Assembly: GCF_024298765.1 (NCBI RefSeq)
Contig: NZ_CP101217.1
DNA length: 3,174 bases
DNA from: Escherichia coli
GTDB taxonomy: Bacteria > Pseudomonadota > Gammaproteobacteria > Enterobacterales > Enterobacteriaceae
Direction: 5' to 3' (one strand)
The position numbers and the translations under genes are program-made. Below the pieces are notes generated by a model, which worked only from the letters and a program-made list of their open reading frames with translations, was not told the origin of the DNA and searched no databases. Positions 1 through 3,174 of this stretch are shown here, piece by piece. How positions within the stretch are numbered: position 1 is the first letter of the stretch; every line of letters starts with the position of its first letter.

Positions 1-164
1 CGACGCGCCCCGTGATCGATGGCCTTGGCTCCGTCCGGCATATCGAGAGCGGCAAACTACCCGTCCCTTCACTGGGAGGGGTGAGTTGTTGCCGTTCCCT
101 CCGACCTTCCACCATCCAGCATATCGCACGATCCCATGAGCACCGCAACAACTGATAACTCCAG

Positions 165-266
165 AGCAAAAAAAAAAAAAGGATCTGCATCATGTGAGAG
201 TGATCCCACCGCTCGCCGCAGCCCCAGCGACCGAACGTAGTGAGCGAGTGGGCGAGGAAGCGGAAG
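165..266 (+). other. ColE1/pMB1-like origin-proximal segment (A13 tract plus conserved downstream block)
   Basis: A13 homopolymer at 168-180. Block 208-266 ACCGCTCGCCGCAGCC...GTGAGCGAG...GCGAGGAAGCGGAAG closely resembles the pBR322/pUC segment ACCGCTCGCCGCAGCCGAACGACCGAGCGCAGCGAGTCAGTGAGCGAGGAAGCGGAAG (recalled), which lies just downstream of the ColE1-type replication origin on the RNAII-sense strand, in the region of the primosome assembly sites. Confidence 0.35.
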
Positions 267-379
267 TGAACCGGAAACCACATTGAGCACGTACGCACCT
301 ATGCCAGATCCGCGCGTAGCGCGTCGCGAAATCGAAAACATTGAACACCGGCAGGCAAACGCACCACCACGCAGCGGAA

Positions 380-775
380 TTAATGATGATCTGGGCTTGT
401 TTCAAGATCGAGCCTGATTGCCTTAAGTTTCTGTAATATATTGTCTTTTGGGTATCTCAGTTCGCCTGTTTTTGTGTCCACTAGTCCGGCCTCGATCAGT
501 AACCCCGCCGCAAGAAACAGGCGGTGATTGCGTTCCCGTCGTTGTGTTTTCCCCTCCATCCGTTTTTGGTTGGCCTGTTTGCGTGCGTTCTCCTGTGCCT
601 GTAGCTCGTTTTTTTCTGCGGTTGCCAGGACGTGGAGTAGTTTGCGCTCCTGTTCTGTTAGTCCGGCTTCGTTATCGAGCAGGTCAATGATCTGCCTCTG
701 TCGTGCGGTCTGTTCTCCGAGCTTCCTGATAAAGCCGATTCGTTTCTTCAACCAGTCGATGTTGCTGATGCGCAT
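380..775 (-). CDS. mobC: MobC-like relaxosome accessory protein (131 aa)
   Basis: Minus-strand ORF, ATG at 775-773, stop TAA (complement of 380-382). AGGGAG Shine-Dalgarno on the minus strand about 10 nt upstream of the ATG. Divergent from the relaxase gene across the oriT region, as in IncQ mobC-oriT-mobA. The motif KTQRRERNHRLFLAAGLLIEAGL resembles the RSF1010 MobC motif as recalled (ERKNETRRKVLVGAMILAKV). The six-frame track extends the ORF to a GTG at 895 (171 aa), which would run through the oriT palindrome; the ATG at 775 with its RBS is preferred. Confidence 0.7.
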   Translation of the reverse strand: MRISNIDWLKKRIGFIRKLGEQTARQRQIIDLLDNEAGLTEQERKLLHVLATAEKNELQAQENARKQANQKRMEGKTQRRERNHRLFLAAGLLIEAGLVDTKTGELRYPKDNILQKLKAIRLDLETSPDHH

Positions 776-799
776 GTTTGGGATGCTCCCTGGTGTTTT

Positions 800-850
800 T
801 TGCGGTGTGTTGGGGTTGTGCAGTATATCGCTTGCGGTGGGTGGGTGCAG
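800..850. repeat. GT-rich direct repeats TTGCGGTG-N-GTGCAG (two copies) in the mobC-mobA intergenic region
   Basis: TTGCGGTG at 800-807 and 832-839, each followed by GTGCAG (818-823 and 845-850), 32-bp period. The plus strand here is strongly G+T skewed. Lies between the mobC start (775) and oriT. Confidence 0.4.
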
Positions 851-882
851 GGGGGTATCTTCCGTGCTAATTCGTAAAATTA

Positions 883-940
883 GCAGGAAGCGCACTTATA
901 TGTTTCTTCGCCGTTGGCTCAGAAACATGTGCGCTCCTGC
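883..940. other. oriT: origin of transfer (oriT), MOBQ/RSF1010-like, with candidate nic sites
   Basis: Inner inverted repeat ATGTTTCT (900-907) / AGAAACAT (921-928), with GCC/GGC pairing inside the spacer; compare RSF1010 arms CCAGTTTCTC/GAGAAACCGG (recalled). Outer imperfect inverted repeat GCAGGAAGCGCAC (883-895) / GTGCGCTCCTGC (929-940). Minus strand reads AGAAACAT-ATAAGTGCG|CTTCC (plus coordinates 898-886), matching the RSF1010 nic core TAAGTGCG|CCCT 8 of 8. Plus strand reads AGAAACAT-GTGCG|CTCCTGC (929-940), a shorter match. An additional small hairpin TGCTAATT/AATTAGCA lies at 865-885. Confidence 0.7.
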
Positions 941-954
941 GGAGGGCTAACACC

Positions 955-1908
955 GTGGCAACCTATCACCTCAATGTAAAATTTGGCGGCAAGGGACAGG
1001 CCGGAAACCATGCCGATTACATCGAACGCAAAGGCGAGTACGAGAAACGAAAAGATCTGGAATACTCAGAGCACGGGAATATGCCAGGCTGGGCGCGAGA
1101 TAATCCCTCCCATTTCTGGCAAGCGGCTGATCAGTTTGAACGTGCGAATGGTTCGACTTATCGGGAGATCGAAATCGCCTTGCCGCGTGAACTGACACCG
1201 GATCAGCGCATTGAACTGGTGCAGGATTTTGTGCGTCAGGTAGCTGGAGAACGGCACGCCTATAGCTTTGCCATTCACAATCCAAAAGCGAGCATTGACG
1301 GAGGGGAACAGCCTCATGCGCATATCATGATGAGCCAGCGTATTAACGATGGTATGGAACGTTCGCCGGAACAGTATTTCCGGCGTTATAACGCCAAGAA
1401 TCCCGAACGGGGAGGCGCAAAAAAAGATTCAGGCAATCTGACACCGACTCAGCAAAAAGAGCAATTGCGGACGTTACGGGCGAGCTGGTCAGCGTTACAG
1501 AACGAGCATTTAGCGCGTCATGGTCACAGGGTGCGCGTTGACCATCGCTCACTGGAAGAACGCGGAATTAAACGCACGCCAGAACGGCATTTCGGATTTG
1601 CCGCCTCATCACGGCTTGATCATGCGCAGCGCCGCGAAATCCTGCAAAACCGAGCGCAGCCGCTCGAACATTTTCTAGAGAAAGCGCATTCGGTTCGCCA
1701 TCAATTTGATGCACAAGTTCAGCAAAAAGAGTTAGTTAAAACGCTTTTACAGGACGTCGCACGGGAGCGAGGGCACGCGCTTACGGCAAGAATAAATAAA
1801 ACAGGTGAAGTTGAATTTGAACGTGCGCCAACGCGGACGCGGAGTAACACGCGAGGGCACGGCATGGGCATTCGTGACAACTCACGCGGGTACGACTACG
1901 AACGTTAA
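955..1908 (+). CDS. mobA: MobA relaxase, MOBQ family (317 aa, relaxase domain only)
   Basis: GTG start at 955 preceded by GGAGGG (941-946, 8-nt spacer); stop TAA 1906-1908. N-terminus MATYHLNVKF...HADYIERKGEY parallels RSF1010 MobA MAIYHL...ADYIQREGKY (recalled). Conserved motifs: ADYI (candidate catalytic Tyr22), REIEIALP, the His cluster H108...PH121AH123IMMSQRIND (candidate metal-binding triad), RYNAKNPERGGAKK, and VDHRSLEERGIKR. Confidence 0.9.
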   Translation: MATYHLNVKFGGKGQAGNHADYIERKGEYEKRKDLEYSEHGNMPGWARDNPSHFWQAADQFERANGSTYREIEIALPRELTPDQRIELVQDFVRQVAGERHAYSFAIHNPKASIDGGEQPHAHIMMSQRINDGMERSPEQYFRRYNAKNPERGGAKKDSGNLTPTQQKEQLRTLRASWSALQNEHLARHGHRVRVDHRSLEERGIKRTPERHFGFAASSRLDHAQRREILQNRAQPLEHFLEKAHSVRHQFDAQVQQKELVKTLLQDVARERGHALTARINKTGEVEFERAPTRTRSNTRGHGMGIRDNSRGYDYER

Positions 1909-1919
1909 AAGGGGACTGT

Positions 1920-2450
1920 ATGGCGAGTACAGAAGAGGGGTTGCTCACGCTCTTGTTGTCCGTTGAGCATTTGAAAAACACTGCGATAGAACAACAGAAA
2001 GCGGTTGCAGACACGCTGGCGGTCGCAAGGGAAACACTGCGGGGGTATCGGGATATTTCTGACAGTGTTGTAAAACAGGTTAGCGATGAAGTCAGAAAAG
2101 GGGTACAGAAAACGGACATTGCGGGGCTGATGGGTGAGCGCATGACCCAGGATTTTCAGCGTCTTGAAGAGACTGTGGCAAAGATGAGAGCCAACGCGGA
2201 GGCGCTTAACAAGGACATTGCGACAATTCATCACAATGTTGTTAAAGAATACAACACGCTCAATAAATACAGTCTGAAATGGTTTATCGGTGTTACGGTC
2301 AGTTTTCTGGTCATGTTCTCGTTGCTTGGCTGGTTTACCAAAACGTTGATCGACAGGAACTACACCGCGACGGAGGTCGTGTATCAGAAAATTGTTGATA
2401 TTGAAAAGAAACTGGACAAACCAGCAACAGGGAAGAGCCGGAAAAACTGA
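1920..2450 (+). CDS. mobilization-associated membrane protein, possibly MobB-like (176 aa; coiled-coil N-terminus, single C-terminal TM helix)
   Basis: ATG at 1920 lies 11 nt after the mobA stop, with AGGGGA RBS-like sequence at 1908-1913 (GGGGA centred about 8 nt upstream), implying operon coupling. Residues ~1-118 are charged and heptad-like (E/K/Q/A-rich). Hydrophobic segment WFIGVTVSFLVMFSLLGWF (aa 121-139, nt 2280-2336) is followed by a short basic tail. The antisense 200-aa ORF (1905-2507) has junk-like composition. Functional assignment is by position and by analogy with the membrane-associated MobB of IncQ plasmids, not by recognised sequence identity. Confidence 0.7.
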   Translation: MASTEEGLLTLLLSVEHLKNTAIEQQKAVADTLAVARETLRGYRDISDSVVKQVSDEVRKGVQKTDIAGLMGERMTQDFQRLEETVAKMRANAEALNKDIATIHHNVVKEYNTLNKYSLKWFIGVTVSFLVMFSLLGWFTKTLIDRNYTATEVVYQKIVDIEKKLDKPATGKSRKN

Positions 2451-2475
2451 CGCGCTTCGCTTGTCCAACGCCTCA

Positions 2476-2502
2476 CGGGACGCGAAAAAATTCCGCGTCC
2501 CG
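2476..2502 (+). terminator. candidate hairpin terminator downstream of the mobA operon
   Basis: 9-bp GC-rich stem CGGGACGCG (2476-2484) / CGCGTCCCG (2494-2502) with a 9-nt A-rich loop, 26 nt after the ORF stop. The downstream T-tract is interrupted (TTCACCGTTTTCT), so intrinsic-terminator assignment is weak; it could instead be a structured single-strand site. Confidence 0.35.
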
Positions 2503-2703
2503 TTCACCGTTTTCTGATGAGAAAGTTTGCCGTTTTGACCCGTTCGGTGCTCAGATTTGGCGAAATTGATTCCGAATCACTTTTGTGAATAGTTATGCAA
2601 GCCCCTGGAAACGTTTCTGACGCGTTTTTTGAGGTAGGGGTGGGGGAAAGCATGGTTTTTTGATGTTTTGAGCGTAAAAGCGTGAAAAATCGCGTTATTG
2701 TGC

Positions 2704-2732
2704 TTGCGATCTTTCGTCAGGGAGCGTAGAAC
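2704..2732 (+). promoter_or_regulatory. candidate sigma70 promoter for a plus-strand primer-like transcript (RNAII analogue)
   Basis: TTGCGA (2704-2709), 17-nt spacer, TAGAAC (2727-2732). It sits immediately upstream of an A-run plus hairpin (2734-2757), similar to how the ColE1 RNAII 5' end overlaps the RNAI terminator. Hexamers are only 4 of 6 matches to consensus. Confidence 0.2.
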
Positions 2733-2733
2733 G

Positions 2734-2757
2734 AAAAAAGCCCGCCGTTAGGCGAGC
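2734..2757 (-). terminator. rho-independent terminator, minus strand
   Basis: Minus-strand RNA would read GCUCGCC-UAAC-GGCGGGC followed by UUUUUU. 7-bp stem with one G-U wobble, which is a C-A mismatch in the plus-strand transcript, so the structure is strand-specific. The U6 tract corresponds to plus A2734-2739. Confidence 0.5.
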
Positions 2758-2860
2758 TTCTTCGGGTTCATTGAGGTTTTCGACCTCCTCAATGTTCCTG
2801 TGGAGTCTGTTGCGGCGACAACGGAAACCAGTTCATTCAGTTTGCATGAACCTTCTGTAT
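2734..2860 (-). ncRNA. candidate antisense regulatory RNA (RNAI-like), boundaries approximate
   Basis: Upstream of the minus-strand terminator (on that strand) are two more hairpins: CATTGAGG/CCTCAATG (2769-2794, 8-bp stem) and GTTCAT/ATGAAC (2831-2851, 6-bp stem). Three stem-loops ending in a terminator within ~120 nt resembles ColE1-type RNAI architecture. No confident promoter found; the 5' end is not defined. Overlapping ORFs in this region look non-coding. Confidence 0.25.
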
Positions 2861-3174
2861 TCTTCAAGCATTACCGACCGCACAGCCTCCCCAGAATCCC
2901 GAAAAAATCCTGTTTTTGCAGATGATTGCGTGTTTGCAAAGACCGTTTGCGGTTGGGGGAGCTGTGACGACGGCAACCGCACGCGTGAGAGTTCCGCTAC
3001 CGGCGCAGAGAGTTTCATCGACAGCGGACACCTGATGAGTTGCCACAAAAACCGTATGTAGCGCGGCTAGATTGGTTGAGTTAGACCTTGGCGGCAGTTC
3101 CCGGTATGTGGTGGCGTGACGGGTGAGATGGTGCGGCGAAGACGCATACGTCACGCAGGCGCGGGTTCTTCCAC

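Follow-up and report, generated by a model that had tools for sequence, protein, structure and literature searches.

The window considered here, that is, the whole stretch of DNA that was analysed, is a 3174-bp sequence from Escherichia coli (GCF_024298765.1, contig NZ_CP101217.1), and all positions given below follow its numbering. Close to its start a run of 13 adenines is followed by a block of sequence that resembles the region downstream of the ColE1 origin, and the question that this locus raises is whether a replication origin lies there, as an earlier note on this DNA had proposed, and by which mechanism it would operate. Based on the evidence described below, the origin region can be assigned to this locus with high confidence, at the end of a replicon of ColE1-like appearance in which the A-tract is followed by a single-strand initiation site (ssiA) and from which a Rep protein is absent. 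The segment formed by 2465..3174 and 1..304 is probably a Rep-independent, RNA-primed theta replicon with a build similar to that of ColE1.

The 3174 bp represent a complete circular plasmid. Apart from its starting point, it corresponds to the circular sequence NZ_CP084293.1 (pLHC5-1-3k of Citrobacter werkmanii), with a single mismatch at position 2816 (C versus T), and near-identical plasmids of 3171-3175 bp were found in Salmonella, Shigella and E. coli. Neither the list of open reading frames nor Pfam revealed a plasmid-encoded Rep over the whole 3174-bp window, and MOB-suite assigned no replicon type to the plasmid. The earlier note had considered that the molecule could be circular through the ends of the window and had named a Rep protein encoded outside it as evidence against an origin at this place; the first assumption proved right, and, as to the second, the window is the entire plasmid and encodes no Rep. 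A search of the literature under the names of plasmids of this family found nothing relevant. The 3172-bp plasmid pCRP3 of Citrobacter rodentium was considered as a relative and rejected, as it is a classical ColE1-type plasmid (rep_cluster_2350) unrelated to this one. The features of the plasmid are collected in Table 1.

Table 1. Location of the genes and of the observed and predicted replication elements on the 3174-bp circular plasmid.
Feature	Position	Strand	Remarks
Conserved upstream segment	2465..2703	+	common to all family members; hairpin, T-rich tail, then conserved sequence
13-bp inverted repeat ACGGGACGCGAAA / TTCCGCGTCCCGT	2475-2503		followed by T-rich tail; just past the mob operon
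Predicted RNAII promoter	2704..2732	+	-35 TTGCGA 2704-2709, 17-nt spacer, -10 TAGAAC 2727-2732; start near G2740
Predicted antisense RNAI, ~97 nt	2735..2831	-	three stem-loops, the last a terminator with U-run; overlaps 5' end of preprimer
Predicted RNAI promoter	2839..2867	-	-35 TTGAAG 2867->2862, 17-nt spacer, -10 CAAACT 2844->2839
Predicted RNAII preprimer, first part	2740..3174	+	runs on through the circle junction
Predicted RNAII preprimer, second part	1..180	+	ends at the A-tract
A13 tract	168..180	+	predicted RNase H processing / RNA-to-DNA switch site of the preprimer; length polymorphic
Spacer between A-tract and ssiA	181..207	+	GATC (Dam) sites 182-185 and 202-205
Probable ssiA / n'-pas-like single-strand initiation (primosome assembly) site	208..266	+	on the strand displaced by leading-strand synthesis; ColE1 homology
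mobC-like ORF, divergent	380-775	-	
MobA/MobL relaxase ORF	955-1908		only protein of the plasmid recognised by Pfam
ORF downstream of relaxase	1920-2450		

The part of the plasmid that is shared with other members of the family is a segment of about 1 kb that extends from 2465 to 304 through the circle junction. When its body was used as a 748-nt query (2629..206) against the 72,556 plasmids of PLSDB, 178 records were matched, which sort into identity groups of approximately 99%, 92% and 75%, similarity being confined to these three. Their hosts are Escherichia, Salmonella, Klebsiella, Shigella, Citrobacter and Enterobacter, and the segment occurs in gut metagenomes as well. It was also detected on plasmids of 1552, 2117 and 3066 bp, on plasmids of 3373 bp that carry rop together with MOBP genes, and on the 1146-bp circular plasmid pF200-6 (NZ_OY754433.1), which consists almost entirely of this segment and has no annotated gene; if its assembly is correct, pF200-6 is a natural minimal RNA-primed replicon. 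None of the open reading frames in the segment is conserved across lineages, as every one is interrupted by frameshifts and stops in some other lineage. A hidden small Rep was therefore ruled out, and replication must be independent of any protein encoded there. Iteron arrays are also absent, the direct repeats found being short families of two or three copies. At the upstream edge of the segment, the hairpin at 2475-2503 is retained even in family members without mob genes and may act as a terminator that insulates the predicted RNAII promoter.

The limits of the replicon were defined by comparison with Col156 plasmids (3885-3898 bp), which share positions 209-2629 of the window at 98.3% identity, but where the window has 2630..208 they contain a rep gene together with an origin of the ColE2 type. 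The boundaries of this exchange are exact (window 209 and 2629), with the ssiA block as the left recombination junction. The cassette swap thus marks out the replicon and places its origin end directly against the block. In these MOBQ plasmids, of which pHNAH8160R-2 is an example, both the ssiA block and the backbone for mobilisation hardly differ from those of the window; they initiate by means of a Rep primase at the ColE2-type origin, whereas the present plasmid has the RNA-primed replicon instead, and the ColE2-type origin of the Col156 plasmid L002 is absent from the corresponding cassette of the window. MOBQ4 backbones have been described only in association with Rep_3 or ColE2 replicons (PMC6856555), and the RNA-primed replicon may represent a third kind on a MOBQ4-like backbone if this MobA is indeed a MOBQ4 protein; the supplementary text on MOBQ4 contained no match for this MobA accession or for these plasmid sizes.

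Within the replicon, a preprimer and its antisense RNA can be predicted. The promoter TTGCGA-17-TAGAAC lies, with its predicted start, 602-615 nt upstream of the A-tract, and this overall length is kept in all lineages, as are the -10 hexamer, which is invariant, and the -35 element, which reads TTGC-- throughout. The earlier note had guessed that a primer starting near 2735 would be of about 600 nt; the start predicted from a promoter of ColE1 style is at ~2740, and the length agrees. Both promoters of the replicon are predictions read from the sequence and fall below a strict consensus scan. The layout of the RNAII promoter parallels that of ColE1 (cTTGAGATCc...TAATCT...G), and a GATC at 2708-2711 overlaps its -35 element in the same way as in ColE1. 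When six family sequences of RNAII were folded to a consensus, 180 pairs were obtained, with compensatory changes in 18. The first part of the preprimer has a conserved G-run, GGTTGGGGG, at 2951-2959, and the second part of the preprimer includes a covarying hairpin across the junction and a C-rich/G-rich hairpin at ~58-84. Its 3' part also contains a 15-nt direct repeat, CCRTCCRGCATATCG, at 31-45 and 112-126; the two copies (CCGTCCGGCATATCG / CCATCCAGCATATCG) are 81 nt apart and their core is kept in all lineages. Shortly before the A-tract, at 141-150, lies the conserved sequence CACCGCAACA, which could pair with the stem-loop sequence TGTTGCGG(T/C)G at 2808-2817 and also with GTTGTTGC at 86-93. 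In ColE1, long-range pairings of RNAII couple the binding of RNAI to primer formation; the complementarities observed here might be pairings of that kind or a coincidence.

The predicted antisense RNAI has a minimum free energy of -42.6 kcal/mol (z = -4.1), a value reached by none of 200 shuffled sequences. Among 10 distinct variants, 97% of the cells are paired, the stems are nearly invariant and two pairs of the terminator show compensated changes. Variation is concentrated in the loops, and loop 2813-2818 exists in nine versions on otherwise near-identical backgrounds, suggesting diversifying selection on incompatibility; position 2816, the one that distinguishes the window from pLHC5-1-3k, is located in this loop. 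In ColE1-type RNAI the loops determine incompatibility, and the pattern of variation of the predicted RNAI matches that of a ColE1-type molecule. The -35 region of its putative promoter (CTTCAAG) is conserved in all lineages, and the -35 hexamer with its 17-nt spacer is identical to that of the ColE1 RNAI promoter.

Altogether, the replicon shares with ColE1 the lack of a Rep protein, a predicted antisense RNA of ~100 nt with three stem-loops and terminator, a predicted preprimer of ~600 nt, an A-run at the expected switch from RNA to DNA, an ssiA block downstream in the same orientation, and the presence of rop in sister plasmids. This likeness in build is not accompanied by likeness in sequence. 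The Rfam RNAI model (RF00106) detected the antisense RNA of ColE1, used as a positive control (645-749, minus strand, 73.8 bits; ColE1 RNAII is therefore on the plus strand), but neither the window nor sister plasmids, L003 included, gave a match to it at E <= 1. Outside the block, blastn of the window against ColE1 found no similarity, the body of RNAII included. The canonical oriV motif GGAAAAACGCC (CCTATGGAAAAACGCC at the RNA/DNA switch) is absent from the window even when up to 3 mismatches are allowed, and no DnaA box was found near the origin or between the A-run and ssiA. In the classical ColE1 family the oriV sequence is identical across members (PMC5935869), and six accessions of the present family that were checked are absent from a census of 1,035 ColE1 plasmids (PMC8683028). 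The replicon, on the build proposed here, is one that works like ColE1 but belongs to a lineage of its own, which escapes recognition by Rfam RNAI, by RNAII homology and by oriV.

The element that does connect both replicons is the block, which runs ACCGCTCGCCGCAG...GGAAGCGGAAG and is invariant within the plasmid family. Blastn aligned positions 193-304 of the window with 1295-1403 of ColE1 (NC_001371) on the same strand, with 70.5% identity over 112 nt (E = 1.7e-13). Over the 59 columns of its core, the block has 83% identity with both ColE1 and a pMB1-like variant, and 80-85% with the variants found in ColE1, Col156, Col(MG828), IncX1 and Rop plasmids; in PLSDB it is present on more than 5000 plasmids. 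Across eight block variants the arms CCGCTCGCCGCA and CGAGGAAGCGGAA are invariant and the changes in the intervening sequence are compensated, with 6 of the 8 tested pairs changing on both sides, although this count derives from eight sequences only. The covariation score was 0.433 compared to 0.232 in shuffled alignments, none of 500 shuffles reached this value, and slid registers gave at most 0.125. The folding energy of the block was no better than that of shuffles on either strand, in the window and in ColE1, and hence the structural argument rests on covariation. The compensated changes fit a hairpin recognised in single-stranded DNA. In addition, the block contains at 258-263 the sequence AAGCGG, which we take to be the motif of the characterised primosome assembly site of ColE1/pBR322. 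Besides its core identity and invariant arms, the block agrees with the ssiA of these plasmids in strand and in where it stands with respect to the origin; it differs in its central stem, a family-specific variant (GCCC/GGGC), and in being much nearer to the presumed switch, and its use by PriA is putative. Taking these data together, block 208-266 is very probably ssiA. This element, also known as n'-pas, is named downstream of the ColE1 switch (PMC3167613; PMC2831885; PMC5935869) and is listed among the typical ColE1 elements (PMC2831885; PMC5935869).

The distribution of the block extends well beyond ColE1. In L002 it is located ~95 nt downstream of the ColE2-type origin, and further carriers are Rep plasmids of the Col(MG828) type, an IncX1 plasmid and other plasmids with rop. 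Since it follows Rep-dependent origins of the ColE2 and Col(MG828) types too, the block marks a position just downstream of an origin and not ColE1 specifically. Unrelated replicon types have it in common as a portable module at which recombination has joined them to other sequences, and by itself it is unsuitable for calling a ColE1 origin.

Apart from the A13 tract, no homopolymer of the window exceeds 7 nt, and the chance expectation for A or T runs of at least 13 is ~6e-5 given the base composition of the window. All 35 family sequences, including lineages that are only ~75% identical, contain a tract of 10-14 A at this place, uninterrupted in 34 of them, in independent assemblies as well as metagenomes. 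GC is always found directly before the tract, and the distance from tract to block is 28-31 nt across lineages (28 nt in the window). The spacer differs in sequence among lineages, and in spite of this a GATC immediately after the tract and another immediately before the block are present in all of them, one lineage having three. Plasmids with identical flanks differ in tract length (11, 12, 13 or 14), confirming the A-tract as a hotspot for slippage or sequencing-length error; that so unstable a sequence is nevertheless conserved argues for a function. Metagenomes were scanned for a run of at least nine A followed, 22-38 nt later, by the first 13 bases of the block. Of 27 contigs matched, 20 have a genuine block, all with flanks of known lineages (one of them a minor variant, L040), and the other 7 are chance matches in unrelated sequences having just the 13-base anchor; thus, among these 27 matches, the combination of A-tract and genuine block did not occur outside this plasmid family.

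Based on these observations, several statements of the earlier note can be evaluated; on the whole, what it observed is confirmed and its interpretation is supported. It had pointed to a long A-run about 30 bp upstream of the block, prone to slippage or length error, and both remarks are borne out, the latter by tracts of 10-14 nt among otherwise identical plasmids. It had described a match of the block to the sequence immediately downstream of the ColE1-type origin in the orientation of RNAII, and had left the significance of this similarity to an alignment and a homology search. The similarity is significant and the orientation is right, but the word "immediately" does not hold. The 555-nt primer of ColE1 ends inside an A5 run, which was located at 1193-1197, and the ColE1 block begins at 1309, ~112 nt after that run. 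The two replicons therefore differ both in the distance from the A-run to ssiA (28 nt here) and in the length of the run itself (10-14 nt here, 5 in ColE1).

Given that an A-run contains the end of the ColE1 primer, the tract is best interpreted as the place where RNase H cuts the preprimer, in or at the edge of an rA:dT hybrid. The RNA-to-DNA switch may well lie within or next to A13, a placement suggested by analogy with ColE1 and by the conservation of the tract.

A switch located upstream of the A-tract, at ~85-165 and thus nearer to the conserved G-rich hairpin, is possible, if rather unlikely; the A-tract would then be an easily melted or rigid spacer that helps to expose ssiA, or an element for binding or bending. 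The spacing of the elements is what keeps a switch further upstream under consideration, because ~87 nt separate the conserved G-rich element from the A-tract that follows it, and the G-run of ColE1 precedes the switch by only ~20 nt. Likewise, applying the ColE1 distance between switch and ssiA would place the equivalent point near window position 95, and the conserved motifs CACCATCCAGCATATCGCAC and GCACCGCAA lie between the G-rich element and the tract. However, region 85-165 contains neither an A-run nor an oriV-like motif, no element there other than the A-tract keeps its character in spite of diverging flanks, and the switch of ColE1 is itself found at an A-run.

Another explanation concerns the block, which could chiefly belong to the mobilisation backbone and serve to prime the complementary strand in the recipient after conjugation, its adjacency to the origin being incidental. 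The block does travel with the MOBQ module, as seen in the Col156 plasmids with their different replicon, and, to judge by the title of a 1991 study by Nomura et al. (cited in PMC6856555), ssi signals are reportedly known on conjugative plasmids. Yet it is present and invariant in family members that have no mob genes, it occurs in non-mobilizable Col(MG828) plasmids, and in ColE1 as well as in plasmids of the ColE2 type it follows the origin closely, which makes this explanation improbable as an alternative; vegetative and transfer roles are, moreover, not mutually exclusive.

It is also very improbable that the tract, read as T13 on the minus strand, is an intrinsic terminator that stops transcripts coming leftward from mobC, or from rop in the sister plasmids, and so shields the origin from antisense read-through. 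Leftward genes do face the tract, both in this plasmid (the mobC-like ORF) and in the relatives carrying rop, and short inverted repeats containing GATC precede the T-run on the minus strand. On the other hand, T13 was not listed in the terminator scan, the minus-strand RNA from 215 to 160 has a folding energy within the range of shuffled sequences (z = -0.45) and shows no stable G+C-rich hairpin before the T-run, ~200 nt that include ssiA separate the stop of the ORF from the tract, and the tract is kept in plasmids of 1146-2117 bp in which the sequence directly to the right of the block lacks any annotated gene. Finally, it is hardly credible that the tract has no function and is just a homopolymer prone to slippage, or an artefact of assembly. 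Its different lengths on identical flanks would be expected from slippage or from sequencing error in homopolymers, but it never falls below 10 and persists uninterrupted, against the chance expectation given above, in independently assembled lineages that are ~25% diverged.

Returning to a switch at the A-tract, the following model can be proposed for initiation on this plasmid. Host RNA polymerase would start the preprimer RNAII near 2740 and transcribe across the circle junction. The antisense RNAI of ~97 nt (~2831 to 2735) would make loop-loop contacts with the stem-loops at the 5' end of RNAII and bind it there, thereby setting copy number and incompatibility, and RNAII molecules that escape RNAI would remain hybridised to the template near the origin. 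RNase H would then cut RNAII in or at the edge of the rA13:dT13 hybrid, and DNA polymerase I would extend the 3' end. Twenty-eight nucleotides further on, the displaced plus strand would expose the ssiA/n'-pas hairpin, on which PriA may assemble a primosome for lagging-strand synthesis. In ColE1, processing by RNase H, extension by Pol I and exposure of ssiA have been described (PMC3167613; PMC5935869), as has the assembly of the primosome by PriA on the exposed ssiA (PMC3167613).

A more far-reaching proposal is that the family constitutes an independent lineage of RNA-primed replicons, which would have only the portable ssiA module in common with ColE1 and in which the long rA:dT tract would replace the canonical oriV. 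This is doubtful, although worth stating for its consequences: if it were true, the 3' end of the primer may be set in another way than in ColE1, for instance by RNase H cutting where a homopolymeric hybrid ends or by slippage of the polymerase on T13, and initiation would be coupled to a PriA site at a distance of only 28 nt. As a homopolymer replaces the canonical oriV, the family offers a test of what defines the RNA-to-DNA switch at R-loop-primed origins.

The 178 PLSDB records indicate that these are common plasmids, yet they are without a replicon type, and those that were checked are missing from the published ColE1 census; the family is therefore overlooked by plasmid surveys and by predictions of incompatibility. 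It provides a compact natural minimal replicon of ~1 kb and, in the loop variants of RNAI, a natural series that may serve as material for studying the evolution of incompatibility.

Two minor observations concern regions adjacent to the replicon. An imperfect inverted repeat (aggaagcgcacttatatgtttc / gaaacatgtgcgctcct) at 884-938, between the divergent mobC-like ORF and mobA, is a plausible candidate for an oriT of the MOBQ type. In the 3638-bp plasmid p53_F (NZ_CP048365.1), the replicon, 99.5% identical, is adjoined by sugE, an efflux gene for quaternary ammonium compounds, and the backbone is therefore able to take cargo.
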